A stretch of DNA of 63,862 nt, the filler included. It is 11 parts of 11 records of this genome, joined end to end, with 100 filler letters (N's around TTAATTAATTAA, not from the genome) between each part and the next. Parts side by side here need not be neighbours in the genome. Positions count along the whole stretch, not along the records: positions 45,435 to 50,940 come from SRR7504441_11612; 10 more parts are not named here. One strand, given 5' to 3'. A program made the position numbers and the translations under genes. The notes beneath the pieces are model-generated. The model saw only the letters and a list, made by a program, of their open reading frames with translations, did no database searches and was not told where the DNA came from. Below are positions 4,794-59,766 of the stretch, piece by piece (the first letter of the stretch is position 1; every line of letters starts with the position of its first letter).

Positions 4794-4893
4794 NNNNNNN
4801 NNNNNNNNNNNNNNNNNNNNNNNNNNNNNNNNNNNNNTTAATTAATTAANNNNNNNNNNNNNNNNNNNNNNNNNNNNNNNNNNNNNNNNNNNN
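4794..4893. other. Artificial contig spacer
   Basis: 44 N + TTAATTAATTAA (stops in all six frames) + 44 N. Confidence 0.99.
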
Positions 4894-15957: not shown

Positions 15958-16057
15958 NNNNNNNNNNNNNNNNNNNNNNNNNNNNNNNNNNNNNNNNNNN
16001 NTTAATTAATTAANNNNNNNNNNNNNNNNNNNNNNNNNNNNNNNNNNNNNNNNNNNN
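15958..16057. other. Artificial contig spacer
   Basis: N44-TTAATTAATTAA-N44. Confidence 0.99.
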
Positions 16058-19165: not shown

Positions 19166-19265
19166 NNNNNNNNNNNNNNNNNNNNNNNNNNNNNNNNNNN
19201 NNNNNNNNNTTAATTAATTAANNNNNNNNNNNNNNNNNNNNNNNNNNNNNNNNNNNNNNNNNNNN
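19166..19265. other. Artificial contig spacer
   Basis: N44-TTAATTAATTAA-N44. Confidence 0.99.
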
Positions 19266-24937: not shown

Positions 24938-25037
24938 NNNNNNNNNNNNNNNNNNNNNNNNNNNNNNNNNNNNNNNNNNNNTTAATTAATTAANNNNNNN
25001 NNNNNNNNNNNNNNNNNNNNNNNNNNNNNNNNNNNNN
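24938..25037. other. Artificial contig spacer
   Basis: N44-TTAATTAATTAA-N44. Confidence 0.99.
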
Positions 25038-28445: not shown

Positions 28446-28545
28446 NNNNNNNNNNNNNNNNNNNNNNNNNNNNNNNNNNNNNNNNNNNNTTAATTAATTA
28501 ANNNNNNNNNNNNNNNNNNNNNNNNNNNNNNNNNNNNNNNNNNNN
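28446..28545. other. Artificial contig spacer
   Basis: N44-TTAATTAATTAA-N44. Confidence 0.99.
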
Positions 28546-34197: not shown

Positions 34198-34297
34198 NNN
34201 NNNNNNNNNNNNNNNNNNNNNNNNNNNNNNNNNNNNNNNNNTTAATTAATTAANNNNNNNNNNNNNNNNNNNNNNNNNNNNNNNNNNNNNNNNNNNN
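34198..34297. other. Artificial contig spacer
   Basis: N44-TTAATTAATTAA-N44. Confidence 0.99.
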
Positions 34298-34548: not shown

Positions 34549-34648
34549 CTTGAACCCGGCCGAGTGGCTCGGCAGCGCGACGGCCGCTCCAACGGATGAA
34601 GAGCCGGATCGATGAACCCGGCCTGAACCGAAGGCGCCGCCACCCTCG

Positions 34649-36337
34649 ATGATTCGCAGCGGCACAGAGCCGAGTTCAGGGACAGCACCCATGCCTCCGC
34701 TGCTGCAGGAGCTGTGCGCCGACGCGGTGGCCGGGCTGCATCGGGCGCTGGCGCCGTGCTCGCTGGCCCGGCTACCGGCGCACAGCCTGCTCCGGATCCT
34801 GGGGCACTGGCTGGCGGCCGGGCCTACCGCGGCCCAACTCCGGCTACTCCACGGGTCGGACCAGCTGGCCGCGCTCAGCCTGACCCGGGTGCCCCCGCCC
34901 AACCTGGCCGGCATCCTATTCGCACTCAGCGCCCCGGCCTTTCCCGGGCTCCGCAGGCTGGAACTGTCGCAGCTGGGCCGGGTGGGTCCCACCGGGCTCT
35001 CGCAGCTCCGTTGCCCGGGGCTCGCCGCCCTGAGCATCAGCCAGGCCCAACTAGCCCCGGCCGGGCTGCGGGCGGTCTGCTGCCACCTGAGTCTGCGCGA
35101 GCTCCGGCTTCAGGACGCTGGGCTGGCGCTGGGCCCGGCGGAGGCTGGGCTGCTCCCGGCCGGGCTCACCGAGCTGGACCTCTCCGGGAACCAGCTGACC
35201 GACCAGACCGTGTGGGCGCTGGCAGATCGGTGCCCGGGGCTGGTCAGGCTCGGGCTGGGCTGCTCGACGGTCGGGTCGGAGGCCGCGTGGGGGCTGTGCA
35301 GGCTGGCGCTCCAACAGCTCGACCTGTCGCTCTCGCAGTTTGGCAGGGAGGGGCTGCTGGCGCTCAGTCGGGCCGCTGAACGGCTGACCGAGCTCCGGCT
35401 GGTGGGCACCCCGGCGGCGGCATGCTTTGAGGCGGCGGCCGGGATGGAGCGGCTGGAGAGTCTAACTCTCGGGCACAGCGGCGCCAACGACCAGACCCTC
35501 TCCCTGCTGGGCAGGCACCCGAGGCTCACAGCGATAGACCTGTCACAGACAGCGGCCCAATCGCCGGCCCAGCTGCCGCCCGGGCTGCGATCGATCAGGG
35601 CCGGGTTCAGCGGGATGGGCGACGCGCTCTGCTTCCGGCTGGCCGAGCTGAGCTCAAATCCTGAGCTGGCGCCCCTCACAGAGCTCGACCTCTCTGGGAG
35701 CAAGCTAACCGCCGCTGGGCTCCCCGCGCTGGCCCAGTGCCGGGGACTCGAGCAGCTCGGACTGGGCCAGCTATCCTGGCTGTCAGATCAGTCTCTGGGC
35801 GAGCTGCTGGCTGAGCTGCCCAGGCTGACGGAGCTGCAGCTGAGTGGCTGCACCAAACTGACCAACCTCCGGCCAATCGGCCGGCTGGAAAGGCTAGAAA
35901 GGCTGCTCTGCGCTGACACCGGGCTGGAGGCCACGCAGCTGAGCTGGCTGCACAACTCGCTCACGCTGAAGCGGCTGGAGCTAAGGGGCTGCGCTGGCAG
36001 GTTTGACTGGTCGACTGCGGAGCGGGCGCTGCTGGCCAGGCTGCCGGAGATCGAAATAATCGGGGCCGACGGCCAGCTGAGGGCCAACCAGCAGGCGGTC
36101 AACAGCTGCGAGCTTGGACCCGTGGCGCCGAGTCAGCCATCGCCAAAGCCCAGCGGGAGGCGAGCCAAACGTGTGTACAGTCCGGGGGTGCTACGGCAGC
36201 TGAGGGTGGCGACATCTACCCGGCCCGAGGGCTTGGCTAACTTGGAGTGCGTTCGGCCTCTCTGGACTGTGACAGATGTGGGCCTCAATCCATATGTAGC
36301 GCCATTCACTCCTCGATCGACTTTACCATCAAGCTGA
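34649..36337 (+). CDS. RNI-like LRR protein with C-terminal eIF4E-binding-like and PAM2-like motifs
   Basis: Many LxxLDLSxxxLT repeats; the tail contains KRVYSPGVLRQLR and GLNPYVAPFTP. Confidence 0.85.
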   Translation: MIRSGTEPSSGTAPMPPLLQELCADAVAGLHRALAPCSLARLPAHSLLRILGHWLAAGPTAAQLRLLHGSDQLAALSLTRVPPPNLAGILFALSAPAFPGLRRLELSQLGRVGPTGLSQLRCPGLAALSISQAQLAPAGLRAVCCHLSLRELRLQDAGLALGPAEAGLLPAGLTELDLSGNQLTDQTVWALADRCPGLVRLGLGCSTVGSEAAWGLCRLALQQLDLSLSQFGREGLLALSRAAERLTELRLVGTPAAACFEAAAGMERLESLTLGHSGANDQTLSLLGRHPRLTAIDLSQTAAQSPAQLPPGLRSIRAGFSGMGDALCFRLAELSSNPELAPLTELDLSGSKLTAAGLPALAQCRGLEQLGLGQLSWLSDQSLGELLAELPRLTELQLSGCTKLTNLRPIGRLERLERLLCADTGLEATQLSWLHNSLTLKRLELRGCAGRFDWSTAERALLARLPEIEIIGADGQLRANQQAVNSCELGPVAPSQPSPKPSGRRAKRVYSPGVLRQLRVATSTRPEGLANLECVRPLWTVTDVGLNPYVAPFTPRSTLPSS

Positions 36338-38849: not shown

Positions 38850-38949
38850 NNNNNNNNNNNNNNNNNNNNNNNNNNNNNNNNNNNNNNNNNNNNTTAATTA
38901 ATTAANNNNNNNNNNNNNNNNNNNNNNNNNNNNNNNNNNNNNNNNNNNN
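38850..38949. other. Artificial contig spacer
   Basis: N44-TTAATTAATTAA-N44. Confidence 0.99.
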
Positions 38950-45334: not shown

Positions 45335-45434
45335 NNNNNNNNNNNNNNNNNNNNNNNNNNNNNNNNNNNNNNNNNNNNTTAATTAATTAANNNNNNNNNN
45401 NNNNNNNNNNNNNNNNNNNNNNNNNNNNNNNNNN
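45335..45434. other. Artificial contig spacer
   Basis: N44-TTAATTAATTAA-N44. Confidence 0.99.
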
Positions 45435-46862
45435 AGCAGCCAGGAGGGCGGCGCGAGAAGAGGCCAGGCAGGCTGCGGAAGCAGAGGTGGTCAGGAGGGC
45501 GGCGCAAGAAGAGGCAGCTAGGAGGGCCGAGGAGGAGGAGGTAACTGCCAGATGGGCCGCAGAGCAGGCAGCCGAAGCCCGCCGATCGAGGATGGCGGCG
45601 ATCGAGGATGTCGAACAAGAACTAGCCGCTCTTCAGGCGCTGGATAGGCAACAGAACGCCCAACGTGAGGCCCACAAAGAGCGGGCTGAGAGCGAACGCC
45701 GAAAATCGAAATTGACCCTGGCCGAGCGGGCACCCCAACCGCCGCCCGTGGTAACGGCAATGGAGAGTCCCCAAGACCATTTGATGGACCAGGAGCTCTC
45801 CAGGCTGCGGGCCGAGCTGGCCACTGAGGGCTTGCTGGCGGCCGATATAGGCCCGCTCAGCGGCGAAGCGCTGGTGGGCGCGGCCGAGAGGAACGCGGCC
45901 ATGCTCCACCAAGCCGCCCTGGCCGCCCGGCAAGCCGCCGACGAGGCTGTTGGGAGCAAGCAGCACAGGACTGCAGAGCAGGCGGCCGCTGCGGCCACCA
46001 CACGAGCGCGCCGGGCGGGTAACGCGGCAGCGCTGGCTCGGGCGGCGTGGGAGCGGCGGCCGGCCGACGATCCGGTCGAGCTGTCGCCGCCGTCGAACGA
46101 GGAGCGGGCGGGGTGGCTTCTGCCGGTGAGCCTACCCTAACCCTAAAGGTGGGCTGGCCTTACGGGCGTGGCAGGTCTGGATCTGCGCGGTGGACACAGT
46201 GGCGCGCCGGGCGATGGGGATGCGCTGGGCGGTCCGGAACTTCCGGCTCAACTGCATGCGGTTCTGGCGCTGCCAGGTCTCAAGGGAGGAGGCCGACCTC
46301 GCGTTCAGTGAGCTGCACCGCTCGATCTCGCCGCGCTCCACCCCCGAGCTGCCCCGGGCTCAGCACCCGCCGCCCCCGGTAGTCGAGTTCGATCTCCCGC
46401 ACGCGTGCCACTCGCCGGATGACGACTCGAGCAGGCACTCCGGCCAGCTTGCGAGGATCCGGCACAAGATTCGACACATCCAGGTGCCCCGGGCCCAGCC
46501 GGCGGCCGACCAACCAGCAGGCGCACCGGCAGAGTCCGCCGGATCCCGGGCGGCCTGTGCGGGTCCAGCTGCTCCGTCACAAGCTCAAGCTCAAGGAGAG
46601 CGAGCTGCCCGAGCAAGCACTGTGGGCCAACCGGCCCAACCCGACGCTGCTCGAGGCGGCTCGCCAGAGCACCACTGTGGCCGAGCTGGAGCGGCTTCGG
46701 CAGCGGCTGGTGGAGAGGGACGAGGCCGAGGCCCCGGAGGAGCTGCGCGAGGCTTTGTGGTGCGAGGCGCAGGCGGATGCGAGGGAGCGGATGGAATCGG
46801 CGCGGCGGAGGTTCGACCAAAGAGCCGAGCAGGCCGGGGTACTGCTCGAGCCTGGCTACTGA
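45435..46862 (+). CDS. Hypothetical coiled-coil protein, 5'-partial
   Basis: ORFs 45487-46140, 46190- and 46419-46862 are joined by short GT-AG introns. Confidence 0.55.
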
Positions 46863-47066
46863 GCATGGGTATAGATATATATCCTAAACCGAGCTTAGTT
46901 GCTCGCTTTTTGTACATTATTGTGTTATTGTATACATACTTAATTACGAGTATTCATATGAATGTGAAATCAAGCTTGAAATTGTAAAACGACTAAGTCT
47001 TGTAGGCGCGTACGTATGATGTACATACATCTCAGGTGGACAGGTCTGACCGTCCGACTGGATGGA

Positions 47067-47840
47067 TCAGGCCTCGTACGGCCAGTAGAGCACGCCCTCG
47101 CTGCCCTGCAGTTTGGTCTCGAGCAGCCACTTGAGGTTTTGCTCGTCGATTGTGCCGTTGCCGTCGACCAGCCTACGGAACTTGTAGTGGTGGAACATTG
47201 TTTCCGGCGTCCTCACCAGCAGCTCGCCCTCGTTCGCATCGTTCAGCGCCAGGTTTTTCCAGGGCGGCAGGATCCAGGTGTCCCGGTGCCACTCGCGCCC
47301 GGCCTGCTCCTTGTATATCCGCAGCTTGGCCCCCAGCCGGCCCTCGATGTCCAGCCAGTACGGCAGCCCGGTGCTCGAGCCGACCACCCGGCAGCCGGCT
47401 CCGTCCTCCAGCGGCTTGTTCCGCCCGCCGGGGCAGATGAACCTGTTTCTGTACCGGGCCAGCTTGACCATCTTGGCCAGCACGTATCCGTCCCCGTACG
47501 GACTGCCCGGTTCGGCCGGGTCGCCAGGGCCGGACTGGAAGGTGAGGTCCCACATGTCGCTATCGAACTGGATCTGGGTGCCGGCCTCGTTCTCGACCAG
47601 GTTGTAGCACCGGGACGAGTCCACCCAGAGCGCCGGCTTGAGCCCGTCGAACGCGAACACGCCCTTCATCGGAAAGTCAGCCCAGTCCGGGTGCTCGGCC
47701 AGCGGGCCGCGCATGCTCTCGCTCTCGAGGAACTGCCTGATCTCCGTATGCGGCATCAGCTCAGGCTGCGGCATCCGAGCGAACAGCACAGACACCCCGC
47801 ACGCCAGCGCGGCAACGCCCAGCCCGATCGAGAGTAACAT
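47067..47840 (-). CDS. Hypothetical secreted/type II membrane protein
   Basis: MLLSIGLGVAALACGVSVLFA followed by a globular-looking domain; intronless, with high GC at third codon positions. Confidence 0.7.
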   Translation of the reverse strand: MLLSIGLGVAALACGVSVLFARMPQPELMPHTEIRQFLESESMRGPLAEHPDWADFPMKGVFAFDGLKPALWVDSSRCYNLVENEAGTQIQFDSDMWDLTFQSGPGDPAEPGSPYGDGYVLAKMVKLARYRNRFICPGGRNKPLEDGAGCRVVGSSTGLPYWLDIEGRLGAKLRIYKEQAGREWHRDTWILPPWKNLALNDANEGELLVRTPETMFHHYKFRRLVDGNGTIDEQNLKWLLETKLQGSEGVLYWPYEA

Positions 47841-47894
47841 CCGGCCGCGCTGTCGGCCGCGCAAAACGCGGCTGCGGTCCGCAGCTGCAGCTCG

Positions 47895-49358
47895 ATGGAC
47901 CGGCACTCGCTGCGCCAAGTGCTGCTGCTGATCCCGGCGCACAGCAGGGTGGCCGGCCGCCGGGGCGGGATGTTCGCGGTCTGCGCGCTGGTCTGCCGCG
48001 CCTGGCGGGAGGGTTGCGCAAGGCTGGCCGAGGATTGGCCGGTCCCGGCCGGCTTCTGTCCGGGCCCTCAGAGGGAGGTGGTCACGGTGCAGCTCGGGCA
48101 GGCCGGGAACCGGGTAGGGGCCCAGTTCTGGCGGGCGATAGGCCTGGAGCACCGGCTGGACCCGGAGAGCGGGGCGAGCGGGGACGGGGACTGCGAGCAG
48201 CTAGCGGTTTACTACCAGGAGGACGGCCGGGGCCGGTACCTGCCCCGGGCCGTGCTGGCCGATCTGGACCCCGCGGGGCTCGACCGGCACCGGGGGCAGC
48301 TGTACAGGAGGGACGGCCTGGTCACCGGGGCCGGCGGCGCGGCCAACAACTGGGCCAAAGCCCGATACGGCGACGGGGTGACAGAGCAGGTACTCGACTG
48401 CGTCAGGCGGGAGGCCGAGCGGTGCGACAGCCTGCAGGGCTTCCAGCTGTGCCACGGGCTCGGAGGCGGCACCGGGAGCGGGCTCGGGGCCCGGCTGCTG
48501 GCCGGGCTGCGCGACGAGTTTGGGTCCAGGATAACTCTCAGCTTCCCGGTGCTGCCCTCGCCGACCGTATCGGACTGCGTGGTCGAGCCGTACAATGCGG
48601 TGCTGTCGATGCCCAGCTTGATTGGGTCGGCCGACGGGTGCGTGCCGCTGGACAACCAGGCCCTGCACCAGCTGTGCCGGTCCTGGCTGCCCGACCCAGC
48701 CATGGGCGACCTGAACAGGTTGGCAGCTCGGGCAATGGCCGAGGCCACCTGCTCGATCAGGTTCCGGTGCGGGCTCTCGCCGGACCTGCGCAAGCTGGCC
48801 GCCAACCTCTGCCCGTTCGCGCGGGGGCACTTCCTCTCGTGCTCGCTCGCCCCGCTCACAGCGCAGGCTGTTCCACCGCACACGATCGAGATGCGAGCTC
48901 AGCTGTTCAACCGCAGCCACTTTGTGTCGGGGATAGACCCCAGGCACGGCCGGTTCCTGGCGCTGCAGACCATGGACAGAGGTCAAGTGTCGTTTGAAGA
49001 GCTGGCGACCAGGCTCCTCTCGCGAAACTCATCGCTGTTCGTCGAGTGGATCCCAAACTTGACCAAAAGCGCCTACTGCCGCGTGCCGCCGCCGGGGCTC
49101 CAGAAATCCGTTAGCCTGCTGGGCAACTCAACTGCCATCCAGGAGGTGCTCAGGCGGCTCGCTGCCCAGTTTAGCGCTTTGCACAACCGTAGGGCGTTTC
49201 TGCACTGGTACACCGCAGAAGGGATGGACGAGCTTGAGTTTGCCGTTGCGGAGAGCGAGCTCGCCAGCCTGATGGATGAGTACCAGGTCTGGCAGGACGC
49301 CACAGCAGACGACACCGACGACGAATCGTGGTTATCTGATTCATCTTTCGATTACTGA
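47895..49358 (+). CDS. TUBB: F-box-like motif fused to a divergent beta-tubulin
   Basis: aa 1-45 SLRQVLLLIP..AVCALVCRAWRE. From 48072: REVVTVQLGQAGN, NNWAK, GGGTGSG, VVEPYN, DLRKLAANL, DPRHGR, FVEWIPN and AFLHWYTAEGMDELEF..EYQ..QDAT (beta-type). Confidence 0.92.
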   Translation: MDRHSLRQVLLLIPAHSRVAGRRGGMFAVCALVCRAWREGCARLAEDWPVPAGFCPGPQREVVTVQLGQAGNRVGAQFWRAIGLEHRLDPESGASGDGDCEQLAVYYQEDGRGRYLPRAVLADLDPAGLDRHRGQLYRRDGLVTGAGGAANNWAKARYGDGVTEQVLDCVRREAERCDSLQGFQLCHGLGGGTGSGLGARLLAGLRDEFGSRITLSFPVLPSPTVSDCVVEPYNAVLSMPSLIGSADGCVPLDNQALHQLCRSWLPDPAMGDLNRLAARAMAEATCSIRFRCGLSPDLRKLAANLCPFARGHFLSCSLAPLTAQAVPPHTIEMRAQLFNRSHFVSGIDPRHGRFLALQTMDRGQVSFEELATRLLSRNSSLFVEWIPNLTKSAYCRVPPPGLQKSVSLLGNSTAIQEVLRRLAAQFSALHNRRAFLHWYTAEGMDELEFAVAESELASLMDEYQVWQDATADDTDDESWLSDSSFDY

Positions 49359-49618
49359 TACTCCATTTTACGAGTAGATACCCGATCGAGTACTTGTGGG
49401 GTAAGATTCCTAAGTCTCGTCAACAGAATTAAGGCATCGGCTACTAATCAGTTACTAATCGGCTGTATATTATTAATCAGGTCGCACGTTAGTTACAGGA
49501 GAGTGTCGGGAGCGCGGGAGTTCGCACAAAAACCGCGTCAACGAAGAAGGAGAGCCTCAACTGACTGCAACGGAATACCGTTCGGAGCCGAGCGGATCTT
49601 CACACGTCCCGCCAAGAG

Positions 49619-50940
49619 ATGGAGGAGAACCTGCTGAGCGAGGTCGAGATGCAGCAGGCGGGCGGGGTTGAGCCGAGCTCTTCGGGCGCCGGCTCCGGGC
49701 TCTCCCAATGGAGCTGGATCGGCAAGCTGGGGCTCGGGCTCGGGTTGGTCGGGCTCTCGGTCGGGCTGGTGGTGGCTGCAGCCACCCGAGACCAGCCGAG
49801 CCGCTCGCCGGCTACATATGACCCTGAGCTGCTCCAGGGGCTGGTACTCTGGCAGCTGAGCAATATGTTCTATCCAACCCAGATGTATGACGCCCCGCCG
49901 GTTGGCCCCGCGACGACTGGCACCCCAGGGGGGGGAGGGAAGGGCGGGATGTATAACGCGCCGGGGGTCGCTCGGTACGAAAAGGTCAAGAACCAAGCCG
50001 CCCCAATTTTGGCCAGAGGCGGGCACGACGCGCTGGGCTCGGCGGGCTTGAGCTCGCTCATTGTGGACCAATCCGCTGATGGGCCGCGCTGGGCGGTGAT
50101 CGACCTCGACTCCGACGCCGGGCGCATGGTCATATTCCGAGGAAGCACCACGGCGGCGGATGCCGCCATCGACAACAGCAAGACAGTTCTTCCTGCGGCT
50201 GGGGGGCTGCCGGCATTACACCTGGCCGCCAACGATCGGCTCATGCAGGCCCAGCCGCTGTGGGACGCTCTCAGCCGGGGCAGAACGTCCAAACTGTACG
50301 TGGCTGGCCATTCTCTTGGCGGCGAGCTTGCTATGATCCTGTACGTCCAACTCAAGATCGGGCAAAGCGCTCAGGCCAAGCAGGTGCTCGCAGCCGTGCG
50401 CGGCCCGATAGAGGTGACTGTATTTGGCGCCTCCCCGCCGTTCCGCTCGAAGCCAACCGGTCGAGTGGCCGATGTGCTCAAACTGGTGCGCTTGTATGTG
50501 AACAACTATGACTTCGTTCCTCGGATGGGCCAGACTTTTGGGCCGCTTGTGAGCCCTGGGACCACCTCTAAGGTTGTGCTAGCTCTTGAAAATTACTCAC
50601 ACGAAAATGGGGGAGACTACGACCCGTGGTACGGCCCAGTGGATGTCTGGTGGATGCAAGGCAGGGGGCCAGTCGGCGGTGGACAGGTCAAGCTGCACCG
50701 CTCGTATCAGCACCAGCTTCACTACTCGTCGCCAGCCGAGATGGGCCTGACTGCAGCCGACCCCCCACCGCCCAAATGCCCGCCTCGCGCCAAATGGAAG
50801 CCAGATCAACTGGCCTGGGTGGCAAGGAGTGAAGAAGAGTGCCTGCCGGAAGGCACCTCCGTATTCGCCAAATCCATAGCTGAGATACTGATATACACGC
50901 TGAAGAAAGTGTACAACTACGACGCGGACCCCAAACTGAT
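49619..50940 (+). CDS. Class 3 lipase with N-terminal TM anchor, 3'-partial
   Basis: VIFRGS, YVAGHSLGG, VFGASP and NNYDFVPR motifs. Confidence 0.9.
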
Positions 50941-51040
50941 NNNNNNNNNNNNNNNNNNNNNNNNNNNNNNNNNNNNNNNNNNNNTTAATTAATTAANNNN
51001 NNNNNNNNNNNNNNNNNNNNNNNNNNNNNNNNNNNNNNNN
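50941..51040. other. Artificial contig spacer
   Basis: N44-TTAATTAATTAA-N44. Confidence 0.99.
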
Positions 51041-59666: not shown

Positions 59667-59766
59667 NNNNNNNNNNNNNNNNNNNNNNNNNNNNNNNNNN
59701 NNNNNNNNNNTTAATTAATTAANNNNNNNNNNNNNNNNNNNNNNNNNNNNNNNNNNNNNNNNNNNN
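59667..59766. other. Artificial contig spacer
   Basis: N44-TTAATTAATTAA-N44. Confidence 0.99.

Follow-up and report, generated by a model that had tools for sequence, protein, structure and literature searches.

A highly divergent beta-like tubulin gene encoding an in-frame N-terminal leader of sub-threshold F-box resemblance

Few eukaryotic proteins are as conserved as the tubulins, whose N-terminus does not normally vary. The F-box (PF00646 and PF12937 in Pfam) is the Skp1-docking module of the substrate receptors of Skp1–Cul1–F-box (SCF) complexes, and its pattern includes a helix 1 with a Leu-Pro. Divergent beta-tubulin paralogues have been described in Tetrahymena thermophila, where the six proteins BLT1–6 carry substitutions in the GTP-binding sites, the interaction surfaces, and the microtubule-targeting motifs, and the beta-like tubulins serve only a subset of the microtubule arrays, namely nuclear and spindle arrays, not cilia (PMC3382179). 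Here, we describe an intact open reading frame (ORF) at positions 47895–49358 of an analyzed stretch of DNA of 63,862 nucleotides, filler included (the window), which encodes a beta-like tubulin behind an N-terminal leader. By analogy, the protein appears comparable in kind to the ciliate non-canonical beta-like tubulins, and the same kind of role as that given for BLT1–6 may be supposed for it (PMC3382179). The differences are that the protein comes from another lineage and that an N-terminal leader is not reported for BLT1–6 in the abstract of that study (PMC3382179). Nor is it a BLT1–6 orthologue: when 1.84 billion cluster representatives were searched exhaustively with HMMER, 12749 hits were returned, and the best 150 of them were all at most 55% identical to it.

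The gene looks alive, is selectively maintained, and encodes a highly divergent beta-tubulin paralogue. The best explanation, which we hold with a little less than even confidence, is that it encodes a specialized, non-standard beta-like tubulin that has lost its own start and carries a lineage-specific, translated leader. The ORF and its tubulin part comprise the following features:

47895–49358, plus strand: whole ORF, 487 codons followed by TGA, a divergent beta-like tubulin with an N-terminal leader
48072–49295, plus strand: tubulin body, R60–Q467
48075–48677, plus strand: Pfam Tubulin domain, residues 61–261 (E 1.2e-48, 166.3 bits, cutoff 33)
48462–48482, plus strand: GGGTGSG, signature of the T4 loop, residues 190–196, read from the sequence
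48822–49160, plus strand: Pfam Tubulin_C domain, residues 310–422 (E 1.5e-17, 64.3 bits, cutoff 26.6)
49296–49355, plus strand: acidic C-terminal tail DATADDTDDESWLSDSSFDY with a terminal Tyr, read from the sequence, with a predicted local distance difference test score (pLDDT) of about 60
49359–49437, plus strand: start of the 3' untranslated region, covered by RNA-library contigs (run X9)

All 60 chains listed by a PDB search with the protein are beta-tubulin. The best match, 6u0h_B (E 1.7e-132), aligns collinearly, with residues 60–474 of the protein on residues 2–433 of the chain; R60 is the counterpart of Arg2, and Gln59 (CAG, 48069–48071) occupies the Met1 position. Instead of the canonical isotype N-terminus (Met-Arg-Glu-Ile/Val without an extension), the protein has Gln59-Arg-Glu-Val-Val after 58 residues. 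A preliminary description of the locus had reported one intronless ORF with about 58 residues in front of a complete beta-type tubulin and QREVV in place of MREI, and the Pfam domains, the PDB chains, and the 6u0h_B alignment bear out the last two points; all that it had observed as fact at the locus is confirmed. The closest tubulin class is beta, with the lone alpha-named match reaching 35% identity versus about 50% for beta. The full-length AlphaFold2 model, built on a 63-row alignment, has a mean pLDDT of 89.2 and a predicted template modelling score (pTM) of 0.85, and the block means over the body are 85–98 except for a dip to 71 at residues 371–380; as modelled, the body is a beta-type tubulin that is predicted to fold. 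It has GGGTGSG, NNWAK, helices 11 and 12, and an acidic tail in common with canonical beta-tubulins (6u0h_B, 6u42_1, and 1jff-type), from which it differs by its identity of about 50%, six in-frame deletions, the absence of Met1, and the 59-residue leader. With GGGTGSG, NNWAK, Asn204, and Asn226, most of the GTP pocket is retained, and the protein probably binds nucleotide. The tail is without the Glu-rich run of canonical beta tails, and a terminal Tyr is an alpha-tubulin trait.

Differences inside the ORF across other runs, comprising DNA run X1 and three RNA libraries (two prepared with oligo-dT in one study and a third, ribosomal-RNA-depleted, from another study), fall at seven sites. Six of them are synonymous third-position changes and the seventh is Ala203Thr, and the gene is under purifying selection. 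Contigs of the RNA libraries match positions 48397–48547, 48537–48800, 48579–48726, 49132–49282, and 49275–49429 with 0–3 mismatches, and the last of these extends 71 nucleotides beyond the stop codon. A 4-nucleotide deletion at 49383 in the RNA contigs of run X9 is also present in DNA run X1. These contigs fit the divergent gene, and ordinary tubulins are seen only as pieces of 31–42 nucleotides at the GGGTGSG region. The coverage by RNA contigs begins at 48397, with none on 46900–48396, which holds the 5' end and the neighboring gene. Since the RNA data are assembled contigs, they establish presence and are not proof of transcription; the gene is probably transcribed.

To describe the divergence of the body, we used an invariant set of 246 alignment positions that are identical in 12 canonical beta-tubulins from distant eukaryotes, of which 161 are kept in the protein and 85 are changed. 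Among the changes, C12A and Q15R fall in the T1 loop, E205Q and Y222M lie close to the nucleotide base, P243R, G244C, Q245G, and N247S alter four invariant positions of the T7 loop, and E410V and D417S belong to helix 12; the changed residues near the nucleotide are presumably GTP contacts. The beta positions 79, 110–111, 215–216, and 286 are deleted, further gaps fall within the H1-S2 loop and behind helix 10, and every indel with respect to canonical beta-tubulin preserves the frame. Such in-frame deletions and substitutions hit the H1-S2 loop, the start of H3, the M-loop, the T7 loop, and two helix-12 positions; we take the first three to be lateral lattice contacts, the T7 loop to be the alpha-facing side, and helix 12 to be the motor-binding surface. 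The body keeps most of its GTP pocket, and we infer that the protein is specialized and no longer a standard lattice subunit.

The protein is an orphan in the collections searched: it is itself absent from the two large protein collections, no orthologue was found in any collection, and the best identity was about 50% among 8000 scored word-sharing candidates. A second scan of metagenomes with the whole protein gave 34 pattern matches, of which 4 were confirmed, all of them ordinary MREI-start tubulins of other organisms with 39–44% identity to it, and the viral contigs gave zero pattern matches. Three of the confirmed tubulins, all at 39–40% identity, look like they come from ciliates or other organisms in which stop codons have been reassigned; L002 has in-frame stops inside conserved motifs, and L003 and L004 have Lys/Asn-rich upstream sequences. 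In a quick tree of 65 rows (the 63 rows of the alignment plus P0272 and P0184), the protein is one of many long-branched beta-like lineages, with a terminal branch of 0.79, whereas the canonical beta-tubulins of distant eukaryotes lie closer together on terminal branches of 0–0.2. It pairs with P0272/P0145 (494 and 463 residues) with a Shimodaira–Hasegawa-like approximate likelihood ratio test (SH-aLRT) value of 89, below the 95 mark. This environmental tubulin is GC-rich, is 44% identical to the protein over residues 61–477, and has derived strings such as LADLDPAGL, ADGCV, and NLCPF in common with it. The grouping may nevertheless be a composition artefact, because the rows of the protein and of its tree partner were both flagged for unusual amino-acid make-up.

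Our preferred reading of the 5' end starts from the Met1 codon, which appears to have been changed to CAG. With this codon lost, translation has to start at an upstream ATG, most likely that at 47895, and the protein would carry a 59-residue leader predicted to consist of two helices and a Pro/Gly linker. The old start was probably lost and the upstream sequence read through, whereby the leader would have been born as a lineage-specific appendage; a docking or regulatory handle is its candidate role. The leader contains the following elements:

47895–48071, plus strand: N-terminal leader, M1–Q59, 59 residues, seen in none of the relatives
47910–47933, plus strand: LRQVLLLI, residues 6–13, a hydrophobic run and possible F-box helix 1, with Leu-Arg and not Leu-Pro
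47970–47972, plus strand: second ATG in frame (M26); a start here would keep only half of the F-box-like stretch
47979–48011, plus strand: VCALVCRAWRE, residues 29–39, the sole stretch aligned by Pfam F-box-like (profile positions 23–33 of 47)
48039–48071, plus strand: Pro/Gly-rich linker PVPAGFCPGPQ, with CAG (Q59) as its last codon and a possible splice acceptor cctcag/AGG

The frame is closed upstream by a TAA at 47835–47837, after which the only ATGs before the body are those at 47895 (ATGGAC), with a T at −3, and at 47970 (ATGTTC), with a purine at −3. The GC content by codon position is 0.80/0.52/0.96 in codons 1–25, 0.71/0.65/0.85 in codons 26–59, and 0.67/0.49/0.86 in the body, so that the difference between the third and second positions (GC3−GC2) is 0.44 and 0.21 in the two parts of the leader. 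Over in-frame windows of 25 codons in the body, this difference averages 0.37, and 97.5% of the 403 windows reach 0.20, a value reached by none of the 805 off-frame windows. Given this coding-type codon periodicity, the leader is probably translated. Its sole variant, A to C at 48020, is synonymous.

A leader that is absent or shortened in the protein, either by removal of an in-frame intron or by a start at the ATG at 47970, would account for some features of this region; the product would then be a tubulin with a short N-terminal stub, and the F-box-like stretch would be lost or halved. A textbook-looking acceptor, CAG/AGG-GAG-GTG, stands exactly before tubulin codon 2. Joined to it, the GT dinucleotides at 47919, 47949, 47979, 47991, and 48042 define possible introns of 153, 123, 93, 81, and 30 nucleotides, all multiples of three; intron-poor genomes tend to keep 5' introns. 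The purine at −3 belongs to M26 and not to M1, codons 26–59 have the weaker coding signal (0.21), and the spacer of 54 nucleotides and 78% GC that separates the ORF from a divergent neighboring gene leaves very little room for a promoter and a leader on each side. However, codons 1–25 have a GC3 of 0.96 versus a GC2 of 0.52, codons 26–59 lie above all the off-frame windows, the donors GTGCTG, GTGGCC, and GTCTGC are weak, and the genome looks intron-poor, as judged from the long uninterrupted ORFs across the window. A splice joint was not observed among the RNA contigs, whose coverage starts downstream of this part and therefore carries no information on it. The preliminary description had stated that no ATG/GT donor could splice toward a plain MREVV start, and indeed neither the ATG at 47895 nor that at 47970 is followed by GT. 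We judge a missing or shortened leader improbable, and we retain the full-length leader in the preferred reading.

The joint between leader and body (48071/48072) is the place where a chimeric metagenome contig would show, a concern that the preliminary description had raised. The metagenome contig that holds the gene is 5.5 kb long and sits within a concatenated bin, and under the bridging rule applied, which demands 31 letters on both sides, the joint is unbridged in run X1, in which one contig ends 20 nucleotides past the joint and the next starts at 48071. The former (47832–48091) runs in one piece from the start of the neighboring gene through the spacer and the entire leader to nucleotide 20 of the tubulin body. 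With 14 differences from the window, it represents another population. The joint is hence supported and not strictly bridged. In addition, the frame, the codon periodicity, and GC3 continue across it, six of the seven variants are synonymous, the indels are in frame, and the body is modelled at a pLDDT of 85–98. A chimera or a decaying pseudogene is, on these grounds, the least probable of the explanations considered and very nearly dismissed.

The strongest rival is that the protein is an F-box-bearing SCF adaptor, as the preliminary description had proposed. In this explanation, residues ~6–48 are a degenerate F-box that docks Skp1 and the tubulin body is the substrate-recognition domain of an SCF ubiquitin ligase, which captures alpha-tubulin, tubulin cofactors, or tubulin-binding proteins; in a variant, the box tethers this tubulin to a Skp1 complex. 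Several observations weigh against our preferred reading, most of them in favor of this rival. Pfam hits in the leader are limited to two models, both of the F-box, namely F-box-like (PF12937) with 12.1 bits and E 0.17 at residues 29–39, and F-box (PF00646) with 11.1 bits and E 0.41 at residues 27–39, and none of 447 composition-matched controls of 59 residues hit either model at E ≤ 1. The controls were three sets of 149 random segments (447 out of 454 that could be drawn) from frames elsewhere in the window that are free of stops over at least 120 residues, and they are Ala/Arg/Leu-rich like the leader (A 12.9%, R 9.8%, and L 9.8%). The leader was included as first member of each set, and the sets gave hits to totals of 52, 42, and 34 families, among them real ones. 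With 0 of 447 controls, the chance of hitting an F-box model is far below the library-wide E of 0.17 and empirically below about 0.7%, and the F-box resemblance of the leader is unlikely to be a matter of pure composition.

The named neighbors of residues 1–59 in a protein atlas are likewise F-box clusters (ranks 6, 13, 16, and 25 of 30, with scores of 0.77–0.82), and for residues 1–32, which exclude VCRAWRE, the top three named clusters are F-box (0.78–0.79) and nine of the ten best named matches fall in one clan, on a scale where scores below 0.9 are leads only, shuffled proteins have a first match of at least 0.8 in a third of cases, and parts of proteins are uncalibrated. The architecture also resembles that of F-box proteins, with an N-terminal position, a short Pro/Gly linker before a globular domain, and a span of ~43 residues from L6 to W48, in which L-x-x-x-L-L-L-I is followed by V-C-R-A-W-R-E, a motif of the V-C-[KR]-x-W type, and by a second Trp 11 residues on. 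The loss of lattice and motor-surface invariants in the body would be expected if microtubule building had been abandoned. Two further points bear on the preferred reading itself: the roles of the changed residues and loops come from textbook knowledge, and the translation of the leader is read from codon statistics only, as the RNA contigs cover nothing in 47895–48396.

Membership in the F-box families by gathering score nevertheless fails. The scores are about half of the Pfam cutoffs (24.3 bits for F-box-like and 20.5 bits for F-box), and the aligned part is 11–13 residues in the middle of the profile, not the whole domain of roughly 45 residues, with LRQVLLLI outside the alignments; with scores below the cutoffs, F-box membership is unproven. 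The hallmark Leu-Pro of F-box helix 1 is Leu-Arg (L6-R7) in the leader, the presumptive helix 1 is interrupted by a Pro, and LRQVLLLI and VCRAWRE fit the F-box register only if an Arg/Gly-rich insertion is allowed between them. AlphaFold2 gives the leader alone, as a single sequence, a pLDDT of 64.3 with helices at residues 3–10 and 24–47, and in the full-length model helices at 3–19 and 25–47 with a pLDDT of 51–69; we saw two low-confidence helices and no confident three-helix box. A Foldseek search of this low-confidence leader model against the PDB returned one match at E 8.8 and none at E ≤ 0.001. The F-box-like signature of the preliminary description thus stands as far as its letters go (VCRAWRE, residues 33–39, with none of the controls hitting the models), and it is unproven as a domain, since the profile match is sub-threshold, the Leu-Pro is missing, and no confident three-helix fold is modelled.

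No homologue of the leader was found in the collections searched, with 64 candidates and none at E ≤ 10 when residues 1–62 were compared with proteins of 267–853 residues, and 369 pattern matches and none confirmed in a metagenome scan with residues 1–152. P0272, the possible sister, has a plain Met-Gly-Ala-Gly-Glu-Val-Val start, in which the Met lies two residues ahead of the Glu-Val-Val start, and is without the F-box-like stretch. Because four T7-loop invariants at the alpha-facing side are changed, the capture of alpha-tubulin, which the rival invokes, is not assured. Within the window, Skp1 is absent from the families listed (25 of 34) for 100 ORFs in a general Pfam scan, and the N-terminus of a leucine-rich-repeat (LRR) protein at 34616–36334, inspected as a possible F-box-LRR protein of the bin, shows no F-box pattern. 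On balance, a functional F-box in the leader seems somewhat unlikely, and a true F-box–tubulin fusion is possible and, in our judgment, unproven.

The charge of the leader raises the possibility of a different function. With 8 Arg and Lys versus 4 Asp and Glu, only one acidic residue in the first 38 positions, and the hydrophobic VLLLI near the N-terminus, it could be a cleavable targeting peptide, either a presequence for mitochondria or plastids or a weak signal peptide, that would send the tubulin-fold protein into an organelle. If the bin is sound, a photosystem II assembly factor domain encoded on another contig points to a plastid. However, an Arg/Ala/Leu-rich composition is normal for any translation of the window DNA, the acidic tail and the conserved helices 11 and 12 look cytosolic, and we know of no organellar beta-tubulin, as organelles use FtsZ. 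A targeting peptide is therefore a quite improbable explanation, well behind a missing or shortened leader.

Leaders on other tubulins offer a comparison for our preferred reading. We picked 20 N-extended tubulins, with a tubulin match starting at least 27 residues in, from the 150 listed representatives, and no F-box was present in any of these 20 (10 checked at E ≤ 0.01 and 10 at E ≤ 1). Their recognizable added domains are GPCR, CAP, transposase, reverse transcriptase, Ig/Sushi, and pseudouridine synthase domains, which are typical of merged gene models. The preliminary description knew of no described F-box–tubulin protein; in the literature searched, as far as the texts were available, no paper describes one. 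Two other beta-like tubulins are, like the present protein, without the canonical Met: P0150 (468 residues), with a body of 40% identity and a 33-residue leader, and P0182 (438 residues), with a body of 37% identity and a 13-residue leader. Their leaders are unrelated in sequence to the leader described here; leaders on divergent tubulins thus recur. The P0150 leader contains F-P-x-E-I-I-x-L-I-L, which by eye is like F-box helix 1, and it has Ser-Lys-Glu-Ile-Ile at the usual start. As a candidate F-box it was rejected, with no Pfam F-box hit at E ≤ 10 and only a chance-type DnaB_2 hit at E 0.011. The C-terminus of P0150 is Asp-Tyr, and the protein described here also ends in Tyr.

The gene would show the tubulin fold re-used for something other than standard microtubules in what would be a marine alga that is abundant and uncultured: an orphan beta copy without Met1, with a probably translated leader of 59 residues, and with a third of the invariants changed is kept under purifying selection. 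Without a true F-box in its leader, the protein is a modest addition to the divergent beta-like tubulins. If it is a real degenerate F-box, which we think rather less probable than the preferred reading, the protein would be the first SCF substrate receptor with a tubulin recognition domain. Its tubulin surfaces would then serve as bait that delivers alpha-tubulin, folding cofactors, or microtubule-binding proteins to Skp1–Cul1 for ubiquitination, which would let tubulin balance be controlled at the protein level in addition to the known autoregulation at the mRNA level. Such a protein would directly link the tubulin fold to the SCF ubiquitin system, and tubulin homeostasis by targeted degradation would become directly testable.

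The window consists of 11 separate contigs chained through ten identical 100-nucleotide spacers of the form N44-TTAATTAATTAA-N44, which we take to be an all-frame stop linker that chains the contigs of a draft or binned genome. Owing to this construction, gene neighborhood is valid within one contig only, and ORFs that enter a spacer are truncated; the proven neighbors of the tubulin gene, on its contig of 5.5 kb, are limited to the genes at 47067–47840 and 49619–50940.

4794–4893, 15958–16057, 19166–19265, 24938–25037, and 28446–28545: first five spacers
34198–34297, 38850–38949, 45335–45434, 50941–51040, and 59667–59766: last five spacers
45435–50940: contig of the tubulin gene
47067–47840, minus strand: divergent neighboring gene, 257 residues with a hydrophobic N-terminus
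47841–47894, no strand: head-to-head spacer between the two start codons, 54 nucleotides, 78% GC
49619–50940, plus strand: ORF with a class-3 lipase domain (Pfam E 1.2e-05), Gly/Ala-rich in its first half and truncated by the contig end

The start of the divergent neighbor lies, as first described, 54 nucleotides upstream of the tubulin ORF. A Pfam search with its protein gave no family; its GC content by codon position (0.63/0.43/0.91 over codons 23–257) is a clear coding signature, and three of its four variants are synonymous, the fourth being Met to Leu. As the two genes use the same tiny GC-rich spacer, they may be co-regulated. In the population of run X1, a patch of 22 nucleotides in this spacer (47865–47886) has 10 substitutions and three 1-nucleotide deletions, and the coding DNA flanking the patch is almost unchanged. 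Long stop-free antisense frames at 47070–48200 (minus strand) and 47016–47837 (plus strand) overlie the 5' end of the tubulin gene and the neighbor; these are typical shadow ORFs of GC-rich DNA, with a codon-position signal weaker than that of the sense frames. For the lipase-domain protein, 8000 candidates were scored, with zero homologues at E ≤ 0.001.

Word matches to the window were obtained in metagenomes and metatranscriptomes labelled marine, seawater, or aquatic (20 rows from 15 studies, whose shares are all small, with a best share of 0.25). The other contigs carry long uninterrupted ORFs with eukaryotic domains (ankyrin, CH and IQ, EF-hand, LRR, ABCA-type transporter, and ELO). Provided that the bin is sound, the host would be a GC-rich, intron-poor, uncultured marine alga. 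Among the 100 window ORFs scanned, one on another contig has a YCF48-type photosystem II assembly factor domain (E 1.2e-24), which suggests that the bin derives from a photosynthetic eukaryote, and cyclophilin, MgtE_N, Ulp1-protease, WW, and ELO domains are also present among these ORFs.

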